A stretch of 64,000 nt of DNA from Squalus acanthias (Eukaryota). Positions 20,298 to 60,282 of this stretch are shown here, piece after piece. The stretch is taken from contig CM059435.1 in the NCBI GenBank assembly GCA_030390025.1, positions 38,936,001 through 39,000,000 on the forward strand. Reading direction: 5' to 3'. The position numbers and the translations under genes are program-made. The notes under the pieces were generated by a model. The model did no database searches. It saw nothing but the letters and a program-made list of their open reading frames with translations, and was not told where the DNA came from. Each line of letters starts with the position of its first letter. Position 1 is the stretch's first letter.

Positions 20298-22842
20298 ATT
20301 GTCCTAAAGCTTTACAGCCAATAAAGTACTTCTGAAATGTAGTCATTGTTGTAATGCTAAATTTATACAAATTGTTAAGCTGCAATTAAAATATTGTTTC
20401 CACTTTTGGGCATCTTACTTTAAGAACAAGGTCAAGGCCATGAAGAGGGTGCAGAAGAGATTCATTATGATACCAAGGATTAGAAGCTTTAGTTATGAAG
20501 AGAGACTAGAGAAAACAAGGCTCTTTGTGGGAAAACAACAGGTTAGAAAGACATCTGAAAGAGTTCAAAACTGAGATTTAAAAAAACAGGGCAAACTGTT
20601 TTCCCCTGGTCAGTAAATCAGAAACTAGAGGGCATACATTTATTAAAGTTATTTCCAAAAGAGGTTAGCAGAATTTTTATTAAATGCAGGGAGTTGTTAG
20701 GACATGGAATACCCGGTCAAAAACAGTGGTAAAGGTAGAATTCATAAAACATTTAAACAAGTATATAAATCTTTGAAGTTAAAGGATACAGGGAAAGAGT
20801 GGAAATGGACTAAATGGCGAGTTCTTTAGAGAGCGGACACAGGCCTACATCTGTGCTGTAAAATTCTATGATTTTAAGATTCCAAGAACCTGAACAAGCT
20901 GGTCAAGAGAATCTGGAGGGGATGATCAAGGCAGATATAAATACACTTTCACTTCTGTATATCAGTGTCTACACACTTTGATGGATGCAAAACAGAGCCT
21001 ACAATAACGTTAATACAACAGTTTACTTTCTGTGCATTATCAGATGTTCAATATTATACACACAAGCAGTTACTTTGGCTGATATACTACAGCTGTTGTG
21101 CCCCAATGGCTACTTTTTTTTTGAAGAGCTGCCAAATACTATTGCACCAAACGAGAAGTCACACAACACTACTGTACAGAACTAAGTGTACCAGTTAGTG
21201 AATCACCATCAAGAGCAATCATTGAGCATACCACATTCCTCAAGAGTATATTAGAGACACCAGAAAACAGCTTGTGCGAGCCTAAACAGTGAGCGTCACC
21301 ATCAACCACAAGGGACATCTCAGCCAACCCAGATCATGCAGTCAAACATCCAAAGAAATGCCCTTCCAGCTGGAGCTACTGGACAGACATCAGAAGCAGG
21401 AGCGTAGGCCAAATATCTCCTAACGAGGGGGACTGAAGTCAGCTGTAGCACCCCTACCCTACCAGCTCGGACATCAGCTAACTCAACCCACACCAGCAAT
21501 CAAACCTAGGGCCTTCAGGGTCTGTGTGGCTCAGTTACTCAATTTCAACCAGCTGTACCACTGGGAGGAGATGGGCAGTGGGGGCAAAGTTAGTGTTCAG
21601 CTGCTGCTGCTTATTGGTGCTTCCCCCCCCCCCCCCCCCCCCCCCATACCCCTGATTTTAATTTTGTCGTCACTCAAATAAAAAGCCAAAATACACTCAA
21701 GGACCTGCTACTGCTGCTCAGGGTAGCTTATAGGGGTCCAAGTTAAATGTAGTCAATAATTGAGTGTACCTACTGAAAGTATAAAAATGGTGCAATTCAA
21801 AGCAAGGAGCTTTCACCTGTGGGAGCCTAAATTCAAATCCAGCAGAGATTAATGGAGCGAAATTCCCTGCCAGCTGTAAGCCACAACATTAAATTAATTC
21901 CAGTTCTTGGGCACAAATTAGGGAAAAGTATTCCATCACCTTCATTTTGAAAACGGAAACAATCAGCCCGCTGGGGATGTGTATTAAAACAGGGAAGAAG
22001 AAGCAGTTATTCTTTTATGATGGAGTCACAAATAAACAGTCAGCAGTTACAGGGTAAACCTACAGTTGAAAGATGCTGTTCATTACTGACCACAAAGCAT
22101 TTGGGCCAGGCAATTTAATTGGCAGCCCCATTTTGAAAAATTGTCAGGTTCAATCTCTGATCTCAAGTTCACTGATCTCAGCCTGGCCAGTGATAGGAGA
22201 TGCTACCGTTGGCTCCAAAGCCCCTGGATACAGGAGATTGGTGGACAGAGGAGAGAGGAATCAGGCTCCTGCTCATTATCATTATCCAGTAAAGCCTGCT
22301 GCAAGTTCATGTGCAGAGGTCTAGTGAGTGCAGGATTAGCTGTGGACACTCATGAATGACAGTTACTTGGTGAGGTACTGGACAACAATCAATGCCCATG
22401 GAACAGTACTCTTGCAATAAATAAACAAACAGCTATGAGAAGAAAGGAGACAATCATTTTTCTCCTTCCTCCTTGCCCTGTACAGAGAAAAAAAAATCCT
22501 AAATAAAAAGGTGGGAGACCAGTCACTTGCTGTTTAATGCTATAGGCAAAGGTCATGTAACTGCTTCACGTATCTGATCAGATCTCAGCATAGAGGCTCA
22601 TCGTACCTTACATGTGCTCAGATCCTTTTACTTTAAAAATCTGTATAAATGTCTTTTTCTTTAAAACTTCAAATAAAGTCTCCAAATAACCATTACTAGG
22701 GCCTATTCAAATGAGCACTCAATTATCTCGTTAGCCCATTTAGCTGCATTTATGAAATTGCAACTCGAGACTCAGACTGGAGCTTCTGCTGAAGTTATTC
22801 ACAAGGTTTAAACTATAGTAATATATTTTTTTTCATACTTAC

Positions 22843-25464
22843 TGCAGTCCCCATTAGTAAATGGCACACTAGGCACTTCTTCCTTAACTTTGCGATGAAT
22901 ATTGGCAGATGTTAAATCTAACGCACCATCATTTGCCAGTTCAGATGTCTCAGCAGGCTCAATTTTTGTTCCTGAATTTTCACAAGGAGTAGAGAATCCT
23001 GGCGACTTGGACAGATGACTACCATTATAGCTATTAGCAGGAGACGAAGCTTGGAACAATGCAGGCTCGGAAGCACCTGGGCTCCGATTATTCTGGTATT
23101 CTTGATCCCCTACTGCCGAAAAAGAATCGTTAGCTATACCTTCACTTTCTGGGGAGTCATTCTCACTAGATTTTAAACTGCTCTGTCGTTGCAAGTTCAC
23201 ACTAGAGTTAATCATTTTCATCTGACTCTCCAAAGCAGCTATATTTGAGAATACTAACAAAGGAGAGTTAGCTGGTAAGTCACTATAAGGCAAAACTGGT
23301 TTTGAATACTCAGTTGCAGGCACTTTCGTACCTTTGTCTCCTTCCAACTCAGATTCATCCATATTTTCATCAGTAAAACTGCTGTCTAGTTCAGCATTTT
23401 CATCAGCCAAAGCTGGCTCTGGATCAGAACCATCATAATAGCCCTCAGGCAAAGGTGTGTTAGGGATCTGACCTCCCATGTGCATTCTAATATGCTGCTG
23501 AAGAACAACAGCATTGGTGAATCTCTTGTGGCAGATAGGACATGAATGCTGCACTCGCAAAGGTGGCTTTGCCCTATGAACCCCGTAGTGAGTCTTGAGG
23601 TTGCCTTTTGTTGAAAAAGCCCTGCCACAGACTTTACATTTGAATGGCCTTTCACCAGTGTGTGTACGGTAATGCATTTTTAGTGAACTCTGGCAACTTA
23701 GTATACGATGGCATACAGCACATTCATTTGGGTCATTGGATGTTTTGTCTATATTTTCCACCAACTGTTGAAGTTTGGATGTCTCAGATGCTTGGCTATT
23801 ATCAAGTATGTTACCAAAAGGTAACTTGGGTTTTGAGGTTTCAGACATTATAGAAGTAGCCAAAATAGGTGCATTGCCATTTTCATTTGCAGACTTAATT
23901 TCTAGGTTAGAATCGTAGTTGCTGACATTTGATGACATAGAAGCAGTTTCACTTACTGCTGGAGATCGTCTCTGCAGAAAATCACTCACAGGTACCTTAT
24001 CTGAAGTATCCTCAAAACTAGTCGACAGATTCAAGCCAACTGAATTGGACAATGTTTGCAAGACAGGTTTGGTGTCCACCAAGTTTGCCGAATTGTCAAC
24101 GGGTATAGACATGCCATATGGAATTCCACTGCTAGTTGGAACATTGTCCAAATGTTCAGGAACAGGATATGGATTCATCCGGATATGCGGGTACTTCTCC
24201 TTATGCCGCTGGAAGTGGACCTTCAGATTGCCTTTGGTTGTAAAACGATTACCACAGATGTTGCATTTGTACGGTCTTTCACCAGTGTGCGAACGGATGT
24301 GAATCTGCAGAGCACTGTCATTTCCAAATACTTTGCCACAAAACTTGCACTTGTGTTTGAAAAAGGACTCCTCGGAACTGGACTTGGTTTCAAACACTGC
24401 AACATTTGGAGGCTTGCCTTTCTGATTTCGTGCAGCTGAAGCTGCAGATAGTCCCATCAGTGGGCTGTGGATAGTTGCAGAATTTGGAGACTGAGGTAGC
24501 AAGGGGTTTGGAAATCTTGCAGCTGGGCTTGTAAGGTTGCCATGTTTAAGCCTTGTGGGGTTTTCAGAGCACGAAATGGAATCAGGCTTGGAGGTTAGCG
24601 AAGCTAGAGCACTAGTAGTTTGGAGAGACCCTGACTCAGAGTGGTGTAAACCTTTGCTAAAATGAGTTGCACCAGCAGAAGAATGAGGTAGCTGTACTGG
24701 TTTAAAACCTTCTATAGTAAAGCTTTGGCTACCAACTTTCTGCCCAATTAAAGCAGCAGCAGCAGAAAGCTGTTGTGACAAGTGAGCCCCCAGTGCTTTA
24801 AGGGGATCTGCAGCTGCAACGATGGATGGGTGCAGAGAATGAGGTGCCATCATTGCCACCTGGATGCGGATTTGCTCAGTTAACTGAATCTGCTGAAGTT
24901 GCTGCTGCTGCAAACAGACCAATTGCTCAAGCAGGATAGGAATGACATTGACATTTCCAGTTGCATTTGAATTGCTGGCAGGCAGAGTGTCTGGAACATG
25001 TTGAGTCACTGCCACTTTAGTGTTCTGAATAGTCTCCAATGTGACATTAGTGTTTGGTATTTTAGATTGGGACACATAGCTCACGTCAGAGGCTGGATGT
25101 AAACTTGCAGCAGCATTTGAGGCACATGATTTTCGAGATTCTACATTATCAACATTCATCTCAGCAGTTTCACTCTCTTCATGCATTCTTCCTTCAGGGC
25201 TATCATTGCTTTTCGATTGATCGCTCATTTGGCCATTTGGAAAGTTATCCGGACAAGATTCTGGGCTGTCTTTTGGAGGCATTTCCCTCTCGCCTTCATT
25301 CATAATCAAAACTGGTGGGTTTTTAGTGCAATTTTTCCTGTGCTCAAGGAACTTGGAGAGATCAAAGAACTCGGCACAACATTTCTTACAGACGTTGGTT
25401 TCCTCGGTCCTGCATTTCTTTGCGCTTACTTCCCCATCTCCATCATCCTGACATTCTTGAGAAC
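22843..25464 (-). CDS. SALL4: SALL4 coding exon 2 (C2HC finger, Q-rich region, zinc-finger clusters 1 and 2)
   Basis: Acceptor ttctcacag|GT at 25464, in frame with the 833-aa ORF 22808..25309. Encodes CKKCCAEF...HRKNC (C2HC), [31 protein letters not shown]-box fingers ([20 protein letters not shown]) and a third finger in cluster 2. Donor A|GTAAGT at 22843. 2622 nt, phase 1-1. Confidence 0.97.
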
Positions 25465-28400
25465 CTGTGAGAAGACAAGCACAGTAACTACTTAGCGTTA
25501 AAGAACACCCATCATGCTCCTAAGCCATAGCAAACAGGCTTTACGATGCACACTATGGGGAGGATTCCCTCCATTTTTTTCCTGTAGTGAAATAGTTAAC
25601 CCACCAGTTATAAATGACTGTCACAAATAATGTACAAAGAAATCTTCCTGCAAGTTATATTTCACTCCATTCATCAAAATTTGATGAAAAGGCAGAGAAT
25701 ATCAAGTAGAAAATGAAGCTTCATTCTCACATATACTTCTTTTTACTAAAATTGGTGGAAAATATAAAACAGCTGAAGGAAATATGGCAAGTACAGCACA
25801 AGCTGACAGGGCAAATCACCCAAAAATAAAACATTTCATATTAGCCATTTTTATTTCTAGGCCGAGATAGATTATTTGAATTTTTTGACCTGGTTTCCAG
25901 TCCTCTGATCATTTGCCATAACCAGACATGTCAAATAGGGTCAACTTCTCCTCCCTGCAACAACAGTTCCTCAACTGCCCAGCTGAAATCAGAACATCGT
26001 ATACAAGTCTGCTTCTTTCCACAATGCATTAGTGAATAGAGCCTTTAACAGTGACTAGGGGGGGTACCACATCAGAATTCTTAAAATGCCACTTATGTTT
26101 ATAGTGTCATAGGAGCAATAATAGTCGTAATGTCTGGCAGAAATTCTACTCATTTATAAATCACACTTGTCTTCAGTGCCGCCTTTGGACATGCAAACTT
26201 TTCTGATCAAGACAACACCATTTTATAGTTTCAGCAACCAGGAAGGAAAAACACAGCTGGTCCCATTCCCTACTAGTTGTTTTTAAAAGTCTGGTTGTAA
26301 AACAGCTTCTCTTCTCTACTTTCCTTCCCGCTCCCCTACCAGTCAGATTAAAACTGGTCAACAAATGCAGGCAAGCTAAAAGCAATTAAAACCCATTTTA
26401 AACAGGCAACCAGATTTTGTCACTGTTAATTGACGATTTGGAATCTGCCAGCATTGCACTGGCAGGAACCTGCACTTAGTTAAAATCTGTAATAAACCCA
26501 AAGTTGTTTTTCAGGAATGCAGCTCCCATCTGCCCACTATAAACAAGGAATCAAATACCTTTTTACAAATCCTTTGTGGCCCCAAACAGATATGCAAGTG
26601 CTCACTCAGGAAGTACAGCTACTCAAAATAGATAGTAGCATGTCCAATTGGATTTTAAGAGTTCTGTTTCATATATGCAATGCCAGAAACAGCTCTAACA
26701 AAACGGATCCAATAAGTTTCAAAGACAAATTTCAATTTAAAATGCAAAAGAGAAGTTGTACTACATAAATATTTGAAGAGAGATGACATGATGCAGATTC
26801 ATGCACTGCAATTCAACTCTTTCCCCCTTCCTCCAGAAGGATGAATGAAAATCAGACAGTGAGAAACATACACGAGAGAAGAAACAGAATGATCTGTAAA
26901 GCAATCGAGTGGAAAACAGGAGACGGTCAAGTGGCACATGTGGATAGACCAGCAGGGGTCACTAATGGCGACTCAACTGTAGCACCCCTATTACCATCTG
27001 GCTGAGATCAACTAATTTTACACAGATGAGAGTCTACCTTGGGCTCCTTCATGCTCTGCTTTTTCATGCTCTGTAGGGCTCGGTGCTGTGCCATCTGTCA
27101 ATTTACCCAAGGCATCAGGAGTGCATTAACGGAAGTATAATCCCAATGAGAAGGGACCACCCCCCCCCCAAGTCCTGCCACCAGGAAAAGATGCCAATAT
27201 TGCACAAGCTCCCAGGGTTTCCACAAGACACCATAACTCTGTACACCAAGTCACACACTTACCACATGTGATGTGCATCACGTATCAGAGGCAAACTGAA
27301 GTAAACAGGTTCAATTTGGATTGTTTCTAAGTGGTTACAAATTCCTGAATATTTTATCTTAAACAGCATTCCACAAGTTAAATTTTACAAGGGATGACTG
27401 TTTCTGTTTACAACTTTAACCACTTGCTTGGAATTTCATCCGAAAGGAAGACAACATGCCTTTAAATGGAAGAAACTAAAAATTAAACGACAAACAGATC
27501 AACTTAATTACGGCCAGTTAAGTCCATTAGGAAATGCCTGAAGGTATTGTCAGCAACTCTAAATAATCACTAAACATCTGTGCATTTAACATACTTTGAA
27601 ACAGGATAATCTGAAATGCCCAGAGATCTTCTGTATTCTCTTCTCTCCTCACCTTCCTTTTCTTCTCTACAAGTACCACCTAAAGAGCAAACCTTCCATT
27701 TAAATAGCCATTTAACAGTAGAACCTTAACTTAGTAAGAATGGCCAGCCTGTTGCAGGTAGCCCACACACACACACACAAAGCCTCATCTGGCAGTGACG
27801 AGCACAATATAGGTTTATAAAATCATCAGTAATCTACTATTTGCACTGAAGATTGCTCCATACTCAAAGCGTTCTTGGTCAAAGCTCACATGAATAAAAG
27901 ACCACATGGGCAGGCTATCAGAGGCCACTCAGCATCCATGGAATTGTACCCTAGCATGGAGAAAGAGAGGAGCAGGATGGAGAAGGGAGGAAAATACATA
28001 ATCTGGCAAAAAAAAAGTTTGTAATAGACCCAAAGTATCATGAATATGGGGTGGGGTGGGGACCGAGGAGCAAATATAAAAAAAAAAGAGTCTAATGTAA
28101 AAGTTTACCCCCCCCCAAAAAAAAAGTACAGTGGAAGGGTGAAGAACGTTTCAATCCAATACGATGACAGCTCTCTTTATTGCATTCCAGTCAAGCCTCC
28201 TTGCAATGAGTCCTAATGAAATGTTGTACAGTGAGGTTTGTATTGCCCATTTACTGTAGAGGGAGCTGTAAACACATTGGACTGGTTAAATTGTGGGCTG
28301 CAGGTCAGCTACTAAAAACTGCAGGACAGATATTAACTCATACAAGCAGTTCATGGGTTGAAACAAGGAGGAAAAAAAATGTTAATTTACAGTAAAAGAC

Positions 28401-30157: not shown

Positions 30158-30532
30158 GAAAGAACAAAAAGCATTTATAAAGTGCCTTTCACAACCTCAG
30201 AACTTCCCATTGCAACCAATGAAGTACTTTTGAAGCACAACCACTGTTGTAATGTAGGAAATGCAGCAGCCAATTTGTGCATATCAAGGTCCCACAAACA
30301 GCAATGAAATAAATGACCAGATCATCTGTTTTAGGTGTTGGTTGAGGGATAAATATTGGCCAGGACACTGGGGAGAACTCCCCTGCACTTCTTCGAATAG
30401 TGCCATGGGATTTTTTATGTCCACCCAAGAGAGCAGACAGGGCCTCAGTTTAAATATCTCATCCGACAGTACGGCACTGAAGTGGCAGGCTAGATTATAT
30501 GCTCAAGTGTCTGGAGTGGGGCTTGAACCCAC
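30158..30532 (-). mobile_element. Deu-domain SINE, second near-complete copy
   Basis: Reverse complement aligns by eye along 18815-19203. Confidence 0.8.
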
Positions 30533-33321
30533 TGTAGGCGAAATTAACAGATTTCTGCACACCTGCCTGGTGAAAATATCGATGGCCACGAGGTGGTGCT
30601 TTCCCCAGAGATTATCCAATAATTGTTTTGTTGAATCTTCAATTACACTTGCTGTAAAGCCTGAAGCACAGTTAGCGGTTCAAAAAAACATTTTGGCAAG
30701 AAGTCAGCTTCCCCCTGCCCAATTTTCTTTTCTCCATAAAAAGTTGAATTTCTCTTTGGGGTTAGGTACTACAGGCGCTAGTCACCCTCTGGTGTCTTAT
30801 CCAAGTTGCCACTATTCATGCACAGACCTGGACCTCAAGTATTGGCAGGCCATTCAATCAATCAATCAGTGGTGGTGGTGGAGGGGCAAGTAGAGAGACT
30901 TTTATCAGAGCTGGCTGAATCAACATCCATACATGCACACTTCAGTCGGAGTCGCTGCATAGTGATCAGAAGTGGGAACCACCAACCGATTTCCTTTACC
31001 TTCGTTCAGGGATGGAGGCTAATTGTAGCATTCTGGGCAATATCAGCTAACTCACCACTGACTGGGGTTGAAACTAGAAATCGTCCTGGACTACATTACC
31101 ACTCAAATGAGCACTTGCGACAGCAGCATGCAACAGTGTGTGTGTTGCAAGCATGTCCATACAGCAGCTTGTTCCAGACACTTAGCCTGTGGTTGAGGTA
31201 GCACCGGATAGGTGCATTTTATGTCATGTCTCTTACCGATTTGTATTTCTTTGGACATGTAAACAAAAATTTTAGATGCTGCAAGTAATAAAATTGATAT
31301 AATGTTGAAAAGACAAGGCTGTATGGAATTAAGTGCAGCAAAACAAGCACGTTCACATTCCTGCTTGCAAACAGTCCAAAAAAATTTTGCTTTAAAAAGG
31401 AGTCTTTTATCATACACTTTATAAAGAATAAAACTATTAACAGTTCGCGTTAAAAAAGTGTCAATTGTATAAAGATAAATGCATAGAGAAAAAGCTAGAA
31501 AATCATTAAGGGAAAATAACCCACATCTTTCACCTGCCTCTCCCCGGACCAGAACGATTGAAAGATATTCCTATTTGCACCCCTCAGTATAGCTTATTGC
31601 ATGATGTTAGCTGAAGCTTAGAAAGCACAAGTTGCAAACTGAAAAAAGACAAACACTGAAATCCTCACAGCAGTGAAAAAATCTACCTACAAGTGTGAAT
31701 GAGGTGAAGCAATCAGGTTAGCTTTAGATGCGAGCTTACAGCAGTCACTATGCAATTAATTACTTCAAGAGATTCGAGTGAACACTTAGAAAATGACTGT
31801 GGCAAGCTACTTGGCTATTTGCACTGCTATTCACAACACCCATGCTCACCTTCCCACCCTGTGCAGAGCAGACCCCAGTCTGCACGTGACTATCAGACAT
31901 ACTACAATGTGCACAGGTTAACTTTGGATACATATTTTAAGAAGGGGCACTTCAGTACAAGTCAGAATTACCGCAAGTCACAAAAACTGGTTTCATATAG
32001 AAACATGTGGTTTACTATAACATATACTGAGCATTTCATTTTTGCTCAGAGGACCAAGAAATCAATTTATCATATGGGGAAGTGCAGCAGTGACCACAAA
32101 GGACTGCAGGCAATGAATGCAGTGAGCAGCTCCCATTTGGCAGGTACTATCCTCAGTTTTCACATCCAGTGACTGGAACGCTGTACTTCACTTACACTGT
32201 AGTTGAATGACTGGGACAGGTATTTAATGGTGTGCGGAAAAAAAAGAGGAACTAGATAGAAATTACAACAAGGAAACAGGACATTCGACTGTTTATCCTC
32301 CACACGAGCAGTAGTTCTAATCCCATGCGCCTGCTCTGTTCCAATATCCTTTTAAGCCTCAAACCACCTGTCTAACCTATTCTTTAGGCAGAGGAGAAAC
32401 ACAGACACCATGCCCAGCAATATCACAGGACCCCAATTATTAGATTACCATTCTGCAATGTACTTTCGGAAACACTAAGGCACCCTCTGCTAACTACTGC
32501 TGTCGGGGTTTACTGTAACTGTACAGGATGTGATGAGTGATTTGAGTTTCGATAGAGGACCAATCAGATCGATTACTCTTTTACTGGGCAGAGAATGGGT
32601 GCCCTGGAGAGGCTTTGAAGAACGTGTGCATTCTTATTCTGACTGTACAGAATTTCGCAGCTTCAGTACTCCATTTGAATAGTAACTCTGAACCAGTCAG
32701 ATTCCAGTAACAGGCCCCAGTAAAATGCAGATCTGCACAGGTTTCTTGTTTTTCTCAGGTCTCTATAATTATGTTTTATAACATTTAAACACCCAAAGGA
32801 ATTATGCTCTTACGTAAAAAGGAGACCATAGTGTGCTCGTAAAGTTCACAGCCTATAATTCCCCACGGCACACAGGATCCTCAGCCAGTGTTCATGGAGG
32901 CACACACCAGCATTTCCGTATATAAAAAAAGCAAAACAAAAACTACAAAAAGAGGCAAGTGTAAATTTTGAAAACAGATCTTTTATTCAGACGGTATAAG
33001 CCAATTGCATTCACCCTCACAGTTCATTAGAAAATTGGTGAAGGCCTTCACGGTAAAGAGCTCCTCTTTGGTATACATAGTGTCCAACTGCTGCAAACAT
33101 GCTCAGTTTTATGTTGTAAATGCGCAAAATATGTATAAACAGTATTCTTTGGGGTGGGAAATCCAGCAGATGTAATTTGGTAGCGAGGGCAGAAGATTTA
33201 TATCTACCACAGAGGCAACGGCTATGCTATTCAAGATGCGGAGATGCCGGTGTTGGACTGGGGTGGACAAAAGTGAGAAGTCGCACAACACCAGGTTATA
33301 GTCCAACAGTTTTATTTGAAA

Positions 33322-33359
33322 TCACAAGCTTTCGGAGCTGCTGCCCCTTCGTCAGGTGA
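33322..33359 (-). ncRNA. Minimal hammerhead ribozyme motif (mirror copy, sense to SALL4 pre-mRNA)
   Basis: Exact reverse complement of 33372-33409 in the other hairpin arm. Confidence 0.7.
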
Positions 33360-33371
33360 AGTGACTTCACT

Positions 33372-33409
33372 TCACCTGACGAAGGGGCAGCAGCTCCGAA
33401 AGCTTGTGA
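33372..33409 (+). ncRNA. Minimal hammerhead ribozyme motif (PLE type)
   Basis: UCAC-CUGACGA-A-GGGGC(AGCA)GCUCC-GAAA-GC-UU-GUGA: stem I UCAC/GUGA, both conserved core boxes, 5-bp stem II, and palindromic AGCU in place of stem III. Confidence 0.7.
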
Positions 33410-34224
33410 TTTCAAATAAAACTGTTGGACTATAACCTGGTGTTGTGCGACTTCTCACTTTTATGCTATTCAAGACAACAGTCTGTGCAGAATTTCCAAA
33501 TCAACCAAAATAGGTCCATTAAAAAAAGGTAAAAAAAAAAAACTTACATTTTCAAAAAAAGCACCTTTTGTGACCTCAGGCCAACCCAGGAACATCACTG
33601 CCAATGAAGTACTGCTGAATTGTAGTCACTGTTGTAATGTAGGGAAACACAGCAGCCAATTTGCACAAAGCAAGGTCCCACAAGCAGCAATGAGATAAAT
33701 GGCCAGATAATCAGGGCACCGGTAGAACTCCTCTACTTTTCTTCAAATAGGGCCATGAACAAAACATTTTCAGAAACAGTTTCTAAACTATAGAGCCCCA
33801 ACCAAGGCCACACTGCTGCAGGTAGCATATTAGCAGAACCATCCAATCACACCTGGTCACTGCATAAACAGAGGCTTTGGGATCAGAGAAATATTGAGTA
33901 GATACGATTCTCATGCTTCCCTACATTACAAACAGTGGACTACACTTCAAAAGTACTTCATTGGCTGTAAACCACCTTGGGACATCCTGAAGTTGTGAAA
34001 GGTGCAATATAAATGCAACTTATTTCTCTTTTCACGGTGCTGGTCCTCTTCTAGGTTGAGGCACTAAGACCATCAATACATGTCTCTAAAATCTATTAGG
34101 ATAACTATTTAAATAAGTTTGCTTGTTTAAAGCTTTATTGCTTCCATGCTACATCCCACTTATGGTAGATACAGAACATAAAGACTACTTTTGGGAAGAA
34201 TCAATTGCATATATTGTTGTGCAA

Positions 34225-47430: not shown

Positions 47431-47497
47431 TGTTTCCAACTATTAGCTGCTCATCCGAGTTGATGTGCTGGGGTTTCGCCTGCTTGCGACGCGACAT
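47431..47497 (-). CDS. SALL4: SALL4 coding exon 1 (MSRRKQAKPQHINSDEQLIVGN, phase-1 end)
   Basis: Hand translation of the minus strand from ACC-ATG at 47497 gives MSRRKQAKPQHI, the Spalt-family NuRD-recruiting motif. It is followed by a GTAAGT donor (47430-47425). 67 nt, too short for the ORF track. Confidence 0.96.
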
Positions 47498-52374: not shown

Positions 52375-53576
52375 CTATGCAAATCTGGCCAGGATGAGTG
52401 CATCACGGGCAGCCATGTGCTCACGTGCTGCCGCTGCTGCTGGTAGATATGCCGCCGTTCGGTCCTCCTCCTCCTCATCTGAGGAGGCTATGAACTGAGC
52501 CACTTGCTCATCAGGAAGCTGCAAGACACGATGCTGTGCCATGTTGTGCAGTACACAGCAGACCACGACCATTCTGGAGACCCTGGCTGCTGAATACTGC
52601 AGGGCTCCACCTGATCTGTCAAGGCATCGGAATCGCATCTTCAGCAAGCCAATGGTTTGCTCGATGATGGACCTGGTCGAAATATGGCTGGCGTTGTAGC
52701 GCTCCTCAGCCTTGTTAGCTGGCCTCCTGATTGGCGTCATTAGCCACTTCTTCAGGGGTTAGCCCTTGTCACCAAGGAGCCATCCGTTAAGTTGGTTTGG
52801 CGGATTGAAGAGCGGAGGAACACTAGAGTTCCGCAGGATGAACGAGTCATGGCAACTACCACAGAACTTGGCGCAAACTTGCAAAATCTCCTTGTGGTTA
52901 CACACCAGCTGTACGTTGATGGAGTGGAAGCCCTTGCGGTTGACAAAGATAGCTGGGTTGTGATGAGGTGCCCTAAGGGCCACATGTGTACAGTCTATGA
53001 TGCCCTGCACCATTAGCAGGCCTGCCATATTTGCAAATCCAACTGAACGCGCGGTTATACTTGCTTGATCCCTTGAGAAGTGGATGTAATTGTGCGCCTT
53101 TGCAAAAAGGACATTGATAACCTGCGTGATGCAACTGTGGGCGGCCGACTGGGAGATGCCGCTGATGTCTGCTGATGATCCCTGGAAGGAGCCTGAAGCA
53201 AAAAAGTTGAGTGCGGTGGTGACTTTGACAGCCACTGGTAAGGGGTGTCCACCCGCTCCTCTGGGATCCAGGTGTTGGTGCAGCAGTGCGCAGATGTCTC
53301 CGACAACCACTCGCGAAAGTCTCAGCCTCCTTTGGCACTGCTGCTCAGTCATGTTGAGGTAGCTCATCCTCTGTCTGTAAACCCTGAGAGGGGGTATCTC
53401 CTGCGGAGACATGCTTCCATGTGCTGGTGCCTTCTGCCCTGTGCAGCATCAGGAGGGTGAGCAGGAAGTTGGCACTCCTGCTGCTGTTGCTGCTGAGCTG
53501 CCTGGTTCTGCTGCTGCCGTGGCTGCTCCTCATCTGAATCTGAGGTCCACGATGAAAGGAAATAAATGGTTCCCAT
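52375..53576 (-). pseudogene. Harbinger DDE transposase of element A (HARBI1-like), disrupted
   Basis: Motifs [66 protein letters not shown] and CCVLHN. In-frame TAA at 52761-52759 replaces the Y of GDKGYP, and there is a frameshift near 53400. AATAAA at 52156-52151. Confidence 0.9.
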
Positions 53577-58491: not shown

Positions 58492-60282
58492 CTAGCCTAG
58501 TGGCTGCAGCATGGCTGGTGGAAGACTGCTGACTTGCAGTGGGGGAGACTGCAGCTGACCTTGCAGGATGACCTCATGCAGCTCTGGGCCTAGAAGACCT
58601 GGCTTTGGACGGTACCATTTCATCATGGGCGGCAGTAGTCCGGGCTGGCTGGCTGACAGGCAACAGCAAGGGCACTGGCAGAGTGATGGGGCGGGAGGAC
58701 GAATGCTGTCATCCTGAGAGAGGACAGCAGGTTTGTGCTCCATTGCCACTCCCCCTGGGCGATGCCTCAGCAATCCAATAATCTGTTGGAGGACAGATTG
58801 CTGGACTGCTGTGAAACTCTGCAAGCCCCTTTCAACACTGGTAACCGCAGCCACAATAGCAGCAGTCTGAGCTTCCATTGCAGCACCCAGACATTGGGTG
58901 GCTTCTGCTTGTGCTGCAATGGAAGCTGAGACATCGGCTGTCAGACACTGCATCATGGTTGGGTCCACAAGTGCGCTAATGGAGTTGGCCATCACTTCCA
59001 TGCTGGAAAGGATGGGCTCCAAGCTCTGCACAAAGTCCTGTGCAAGGTTGGTGCTGGCCTCCTCCATGCTCCTTGACATTGCACTCAGGCTTTCTGGCAG
59101 GCCTGCCAATGCACCAAGCATTTCATTGTACATACCCATCAGCCTTCTTCTGTAGGCTGTCCCATCGAAGGCCTCATCTAAGTCCTCTGCAGCAGAACTC
59201 ATGCATGACCTCGCCCTCCGGGGAGCTGGCACCTGCACTACCCTTGCTCCCTGCCCTGGCTGCAGGCCACTCATACCCGGTGTCTCACCACTTGCAGATC
59301 CCGTGTCTAACCTATCCTCTAAAGTACGCAGAGTGGCAGTATCTGAGCTGGTGGCTGTGAGTGTGAAATCGAGTGACAGTGCCGTGTCTTCAGCATCACT
59401 GCCTTCTTCCTCTTCCAGTTCTTGCTCCTCCACCACTGCCTGGTCAGGTTGCAGTTCTTGGCTATCTGAAAGGAGAAAAGCATGAGGGTAGGGTTGCAGT
59501 GAAGGGATGGGGGGAAAGTAAGAGGTGCATGCTTACACCATCTGCAGCTTGTAAATTAGAAGAGATTGTGGGATGAGGAGGAAGTGGGATGTGAGAAGGA
59601 GGATTGGGTATGAGGATACCATGATCTTCCATTGTTTCAGCCCCGCTGCTAGCCACAGGCTCAGCGCTGGCCGCTCCAATAATCTCCAGCACCGTCTCCC
59701 CCATGGGAGTTAGTTCATGCAGGTGCGCCTGTCTCCTTTTGGGTAGCCCCTGTTGCCTCCAGTTATGAGCCACCTTGTCTTGCAAGAGAGAGGGAAGTGT
59801 ATCAGTGAGTGTGGTGCAATGTGTTTGGTTGATATGCCTGTCATGGTTGAATAGCTGGCAGTGTGTGCAAGCTGTGAGATGTGGGTGTGAGGCTTGCAGC
59901 AGTGCTAAGTGTGTGAGGTTGAGGTGAAGCTATGAATGTGAGGTATGAGTCATTATTGATCGAGATTGTTGGTAGGTGAGTGAAGTGGAGGTGGTGAATT
60001 AAGCAGTGTCTGAGCCTATTGGTTCAGTTGTAAGGATTTGGCATTTGAAGATGAATTTGCTGTCATTAGACTTCTTGTGGCACTGCATCCAGGTCCTCGG
60101 GGCTACACTGCTGGCATTGACAGCAACGGCTATCTGCTCCCATTGCCTTCTCACAGTTTGTCTGGTGGGCCTCCTGGCCCCCTGTGGATAGAGGACCTCT
60201 CTCCTCCTGTCCACCTCCTGCACCAAGGCCTTCAGTGCTGTGTCGGAAAATCTTGGAGCCCGCTCTCTTCCTGTTTTGCCAT
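58492..60282 (-). pseudogene. Spliced Myb/SANT-like gene of element B (3 exons: about 60282-60050, 59780-59620, 59465-58492)
   Basis: Exon 1 reads APRFSDTALKALVQEVDRRREVLYP...WEQIAVAVNA...RTWMQCHKK, with a 1-nt frameshift after the ATG. Donor G|GTATCC at 59620 and acceptor cttttctcctttcag| at 59465 are phase-compatible. A long acidic, low-complexity third exon follows (314-aa ORF). Confidence 0.75.

Follow-up and report, generated by a model that had tools for sequence, protein, structure and literature searches.

A one-tailed head-to-head pair of Penelope-like retrotransposon ends in a shark SALL4-like intron, with counts from related copies that favour double priming

Judged from its sequence, the perfect hairpin in the window (the whole 64,000-nucleotide stretch of Squalus acanthias DNA analysed here) is a non-coding head-to-head insertion of two pseudo-LTR (pLTR) end pieces of a shark Penelope-like retrotransposon (PLE). 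The locus is real but ordinary, and its value is the fossil population to which it belongs. Counts of tails and of mixed arms in that population reject fold-back of one cDNA and favour two cDNAs that were primed separately and joined close to the probable start of the RNA. We therefore regard double priming as the likely origin of the insertion, with two end pieces of the shark PLE carrying their hammerheads as passengers.

The insertion, its hammerhead motifs and its host gene

The inverted repeat at 33269–33364 and 33367–33462 has arms of 96 nt that are 100% complementary across a 2-nt spacer, and its fold reaches −199.2 kcal/mol (z −26.9), a value matched by none of 200 shuffles. It belongs to a 225-bp insert enclosed by a 14-bp direct repeat on the + strand (33223–33236 and 33462–33475), with the last 2 bases of the left copy also matching the tail end of the element and the first base of the right copy being common to arm and duplication. 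Inverted-repeat and direct-repeat analysis thereby re-found the hairpin, the target-site duplication and the insert size described in an earlier note on this DNA. Unstressed in that note was the asymmetry of the insert, in which an extra 32-bp "tail" (33237–33268, − strand, pLTR about +95 to +126) is present on the left arm only. The tailed arm (33237–33364, sense on the − strand) is a pLTR copy from −2 to +126, and the tail-less arm (33365–33461, sense on the + strand) is a copy from −4 to +93. They meet in a head-to-head joint at 33362–33369, where the arms end 2–4 bases past an initiator-like +1 (33362 on the − strand, 33369 on the + strand) that may represent the RNA start.

Each arm contains a 4-bp stem I, a CUGANGA box, one extra A, a 5-bp stem II with one G-U pair, GAAA, an AGCU palindrome and a CUU triplet. 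These core parts agree with the earlier claim of one minimal hammerhead per arm, placing the motifs at 33372–33409 on the + strand (predicted cut between 33405 and 33406) and at 33359–33322 on the − strand (predicted cut between 33326 and 33325). The 38-mer 33372–33409 folds into stems I and II, yet with a z of only −0.71 and 43 of 200 shuffles being as good, and no hammerhead was found among 10 Rfam matches at E ≤ 10; the miRNA matches of that search were rejected, being hairpin-shaped only and under the family cut-offs. Given that the fold is at shuffle level and that Rfam gave no match in the model-search and folding check suggested in the earlier note, the hammerhead call rests on the core motif and not on a model score. 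Among 438 arms with a full core, the AGCU palindrome is intact in 431, stem II is fully paired in 429 and stem I keeps 4 pairs in 367, while H17 is U or C only (208 arms), in agreement with an NUH triplet. Stem I occurs in UCAC/GUGA and UUAC/GUAA lineages with a wobble intermediate, a covariation that may represent one lineage event only and lends the hammerhead weak support. A free two-strand fold of two ribozyme copies returned no dimer form; the dimer is non-nested, so that such a fold cannot show it. In the available part of PMC4209133, minimal hammerheads of metazoan PLEs resemble the shark motif in their short stem I, the extra base between positions 9 and 10.1, the G10.1–C11.1 pair and a palindrome replacing stem III, and they are reported with no cleavage as monomers and low cleavage as dimers. 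Opposite-strand hammerhead pairs were already noted there at distances of ~100–700 bp, whereas the shark pairs are only ~12 bp apart.

The insertion lies between exon 1 (coding part 47431–47497 on the − strand, ATG at 47497) and exon 2 (in an open frame at 22808–25519, − strand) of a SALL gene, after which two more SALL exons follow. The exon 2 frame has its best solved-structure match in SALL4 (E 7.6e-64), a match that does not separate paralogues because the solved-structure library is rich in SALL4 pieces. The exons are compatible with a SALL4 layout, namely an MSRRKQ motif at the N-terminus, two clusters of zinc fingers in exon 2, one in exons 3–4 and no third cluster, the lack of a third cluster being what we take to be a SALL4 mark. 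The placement in intron 1 of SALL4 by the earlier note is thus borne out in the form of a SALL4-like gene. In a fold of the SALL strand, all 38 ribozyme nucleotides pair with the antisense arm, so that cleavage in the host pre-mRNA is predicted to be blocked, as expected from the earlier suggestion that the ribozyme is locked in dsRNA. To either side of the hairpin lie older copies of a different high-copy repeat (33597–33712, 33914–34016 and 30171–30326), two of them inverted and ~300 bases apart. The window also holds − strand open frames at 52759–53448 and 58492–59929, which presumably resemble a Harbinger-type transposase and a possible partner protein.

Copy number, parent frame and age

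Pattern searches of the 3.7-Gb genome of the same species (reversed-pattern controls, 0) found 2,484 exact occurrences of a 36-base ribozyme core, together with 4,192 short head-to-head pairs by pattern and 5,044 by a tail-anchored pattern. At three loci (L085, L028 and L021) the same pLTR continues upstream into a frame of probable reverse transcriptase (RT)-endonuclease type. This parent frame, 716 aa long, open and 5'-truncated, contains an RT domain (Pfam RVT_1, E 2.6e-8) and ends ~315 bases above the ribozyme. Shark proteins (81–92%) are the closest homologs, and its wider homologs often carry the GIY-YIG domain PF01541. Pfam GIY-YIG gave no score on the L085 frame, and a 400-aa piece of the frame had no Pfam hit. 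A Cys-rich linker and a C-terminal motif pair, which we take to be GIY-YIG-like, were both recognised by eye. A zinc-finger-like linker between RT and endonuclease is given as a feature of the Neptune clade in the available part of PMC8557442. The genome-wide search for copies and for an RT parent proposed in the earlier note was thus productive, with at least 4,192 short hairpins and relatives running into an RVT_1 frame, and the Penelope-like origin with inverted pLTRs put forward there is supported by the inverted arms, the one-sided tail, the target-site duplication and the linkage of the pLTR to the RT frame.

The layout of the locus was already known, since inverted 5'-truncated PLE copies with a 30–40-bp tail at one end and a target duplication are described in the accessible parts of PMC3846280 and PMC8557442, and ribozyme pairs in those of PMC4209133. 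The closest counterpart is Pen2a_Av (PMC3846280, with a scheme in PMC8557442, both in part), which shares with the shark insertion the head-to-head inverted 5'-truncated copy, the tail at one end and a target duplication of ~10 bp. By contrast, the shark arms span only 97–128 bp with no ORF between them, and their copies can be counted in thousands. Non-LTR retrozymes, as presented in the available portion of 10.64898/2026.07.22.740005, are likewise non-coding hammerhead-bearing PLE derivatives; they form direct tandem arrays in which ribozyme dimers are possible, whereas the shark element is an inverted pair with a sequestered ribozyme. Retrozyme identity was ruled out by the inverted pair and the lack of tandem units.

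Assembly fold-back, an artefact that the earlier note had kept in view, has next to no probability as the maker of the hairpin. Although the hairpin centre is spanned by none of the short-read contigs, its sequence is identical at the independent locus L164, short-read contigs from two samples run out of the unique flank across the left junction, their flank departing from the window at 2 sites, and the right junction is spanned by one short-read contig (0 differences); the target duplication, the asymmetric tail and thousands of loci with the same anatomy speak against the artefact as well. No empty-site joint was seen among the best 15 of 218 joints in short-read contigs, and the contigs of one possible RNA run contained repeats only, without the locus flank. 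The earlier note further inferred a functional self-silenced ribozyme cassette, or a dsRNA signal, regulating SALL4. Its position in intron 1 and the 96-bp perfect RNA duplex predicted from either strand would suit such a role, a perfect duplex of this length being a plausible ADAR or Dicer substrate. We consider this reading extremely unlikely, as the genome holds at least 4,192 equivalents of the insert and its sequence is the common family variant without special feature; no function at this locus is indicated, and the hammerheads are probably passengers. It is very unlikely, too, that the short hairpins represent a non-autonomous mini-element which spreads by itself, each hairpin moving as one unit. 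Thousands of copies are of similar size and some joints recur exactly, but joints differ between copies and grade into kilobase-long pairs, those that recur are found across different lineages as well as in mixed hairpins, as expected from microhomology, and entire hairpins are not tied together by private changes in common (only 3 of 104 hairpins had shared rare variants, 7 in all).

The earlier note called the insertion very young. Rare single-arm changes numbered 62 in 104 sampled hairpins, or ~0.4% per site in a sample biased to intact copies, at which level 192 unchanged bases have a chance of ~0.48. At the mutation rate of 7e-10 per base per generation stated for another species, the epaulette shark, in the available part of PMC10587355, simple arithmetic gives ~7 million generations per change for 192 bases. 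Perfect arms are therefore a poor guide to youth. As contigs of two samples also carry the insertion, its description as very young is unsupported. The family, as the earlier note proposed, does look recent in sequence terms, with 2,484 exact 36-mers and an open frame of 716 aa.

Nested insertions were met within the family. An element of ~900 bp, presumably a PIF/Harbinger-type miniature element, has short terminal inverted repeats made of G/C runs and is bordered by a 3-bp duplication. It sits at pLTR +60 in 7 arms at 6 loci (L157, L206, L262 (whole), L012, L079 and both arms of L061), and looks like it has a preferred target inside the PLE end. At L076 (G000:C1:23157570-23158350), a rare-variant hairpin lies inside an arm of another hairpin with a 12-bp pLTR duplication, and its stem II shows a compensatory pair change.

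Tails, reach and sequence of the two arms

The arm statistics draw on fossil copies, chiefly those that come first in the list for contigs C1–C7. Rows left out were 4 loci without an anchor (joints), 6 of 104 with untypable loops, 4 of 30 without a partner (marker set) and, for the long pairs, 31 of 66 without a partner plus 2 untyped. Among 50 unselected short hairpins, 39 combined one tailed with one tail-less arm, 1 had two tails, 1 had none and 9 had an unclassified arm; target duplications of 10–14 bp were found in 39 of the 50. The same one-tail rule held in 101 of 104 hairpins of an enlarged set (54 of these chosen by tail pattern), in 32 of 33 long pairs and in all 30 pairs with one short arm. 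Fold-back of a single cDNA needs the tailed arm to reach furthest in the 5' direction. The results showed that the arm reaching further 5' was the tailed one in 29 and the tail-less one in 24 of the 101 pairs, with both ending within 1 nt in 48, and that, where one arm is cut short, its complete partner was tail-less in 21 of 30 pairs and in 6 of the 9 with a fold-back-like joint. Fold-back of one cDNA is rejected by these tail and reach counts.

The RNA start is probably the initiator-like +1 near the joint. By eye, 14 of 30 copies unselected for 5' length begin at −17 to +4 of this site, which lies ~30 bases below a TATA-like box, and the same pair exists in a second lineage. A TATA-like box paired with a TCACT initiator is likewise described for the A. 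vaga Pen2a_Av pLTR in the available part of PMC3846280; the D. virilis Penelope promoter is given as TATA-less in that of PMC2377424, which counts against such a start. Among the first 100 of 2,014 truncated arms, ~36 end at microhomology with a joint that, by eye, reads exactly like cDNA fold-back, and only ~6 end at the predicted cleavage site. Ribozyme cleavage as a common RT stop was rejected; of the ends at the cut, 4 lie on microhomology and 2 are duplicates. An extra C templated by the cap is not claimed for the joint, most cases being ambiguous, as the natural −1 base or the partner arm gives the same letter. Arms stopping at the predicted cut (L298, L299, L300, L305 and L325) were tailed in 5 of 5 fetched, 2 being duplicates, against a background of 21 of 30.

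The two arms of a hairpin are frequently not of one type. Among 360 hairpins with a G-type stem II and a G- or A11-type partner, 240 have the G variant on both arms and 120 are mixed, joining stem-II variants that differ at two sites. Loop type differs between the arms in 31 of 98 typed hairpins, 10 of these by multi-site recurrent types, and the arms of L003 differ at 7 recurrent sites. At the other extreme, the arms of L082 have 0 differences in 186 nt with 4 private variants common to both, and loop concordance within lineages is 65, compared with 46 in shuffles, of 96. These numbers suggest that the two cDNAs would mostly go back to one source, with two RNAs contributing in a sizeable minority of cases. 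Of the long pairs, the arms of L084 show 11 recurrent-site differences, yet share 6 minor alleles, and the arms of L141 share lineage markers but show 46 differences over 1,296 aligned positions, of which 44 are non-recurrent.

Self-priming or fold-back of one template could make the second arm, with mixed arms arising from later gene conversion. Self-priming from palindromic joints, on antisense RNA, was proposed for PLE inverted copies in the accessible text of PMC3846280, and the ~36 fold-back-like joints described above, lineage markers shared by the arms at two sites in 103 of 104 hairpins, and private changes common to both arms in L082, L018 and L233 are all in line with it. Pairs of shared source, such as L082 and those behind the loop concordance, are indeed expected from a single-template route as well as from double priming, and gene conversion could have produced mixed arms later. 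We nevertheless judge one template with conversion to be unlikely. The 5'-complete arm is too often tail-less, among fold-back-like joints and short-arm pairs alike, and a third line of counts, the 120 mixed hairpins, also goes against a single template, so that the self-priming reading published for Pen2a_Av, as far as the available part of PMC3846280 sets it out, misfits both the tail and the mixed-arm counts. Moreover, the arms differ at +18 in 13 of 103 hairpins (2 likely alignment noise) and at +40 in 1 of 104; conversion from random donors should strike neighbouring markers alike, and this unevenness argues against it.

Double priming, the reading we prefer, would proceed as follows. The protein of the element would cut both DNA strands 14 bases apart, and each DNA 3' end would start its own cDNA, a polarity suggested by the outer ends, which look as though a staggered cut had offered two 3' ends and a cDNA had grown from each. 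Of the two start points, one would be the tail site and one would lie ~32 bases closer to the 5' end of the RNA. Each cDNA would extend roughly to that 5' end, where the two would be joined, often through 1–5 bases of microhomology, and then filled in; the two cDNAs may mostly derive from one source and, in a sizeable minority, wholly or partly from two RNAs. In L1 twin priming, cDNA synthesis is primed from either end of the target and microhomology unites the products, as would be the case here; L1 thereby yields two non-overlapping pieces of one RNA, whereas the shark arms represent the same region with fixed starts, and two RNAs are possible. The lizard PLE protein Poseidon_Ac offers a biochemical parallel, since in vitro it cuts and extends both strands, is a predicted dimer and starts RT at two neighbouring sites within the RNA, between which the tail lies (PMC11167929), and the outer ends of the shark copies match such tail-bounding start sites. 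Ribozyme cleavage is unneeded for insertion by Poseidon_Ac, whose tail lies inside the ORF and which belongs to another clade than the shark element; the main text of PMC11167929 draws no link from the two starts to inverted insertions, its sole use of "inverted" referring to a primer block.

Downstream markers and the meaning of the population

A bolder proposal is that the hammerhead serves as an RNA-pairing signal of the PLE, with AGCU-paired transcripts entering a dimeric particle, being copied into separate cDNAs and permitting a template swap inside the ribozyme. We regard it as doubtful, although mixed hairpins seem to share more downstream sequence than two independent RNAs would give, which hints at such a swap. 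When an A11 arm carries the downstream G marker, its G-type partner has it too in 6 of 8 cases, the background in G-type arms being ~5% (118 vs 2,484). Recombinant-type arms had a like partner in 0 of 26, and 17 cases showed a non-G or untyped partner with the marker. A private downstream change was common to both arms in 2 of 30 mixed hairpins, one of them lying 2 bases past the predicted cut. Mixed short hairpins gave 7 of 27 vs 1 of 30 for long pairs (matching lineage; p 0.02), although 5 of 29 long pairs have arms that disagree at the downstream marker. Against a swap stand the lack of a pile-up of arm ends at the predicted cut and the rarity of stem-II islands in long arms (25 vs 4,512). 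The shared downstream sequence could also come from snap-back copying during fill-in, from short gene conversion or from lineage succession.

Taken together, the locus itself is of little matter, and its worth lies in the population behind it. How inverted one-tailed PLE copies are made, and what the hammerhead does in vivo, are presented as open questions in the parts of PMC8557442 and PMC11167929 considered here. No twin-priming or two-RNA proposal for PLE inverted insertions was found in the literature covered, a weak negative as subscription papers, including the main PLE reviews, lay outside it. Thousands of near-intact shark hairpins form a record that can be counted. It speaks for double priming rather than self-priming, and this population indicates that two RNAs can feed one insertion.
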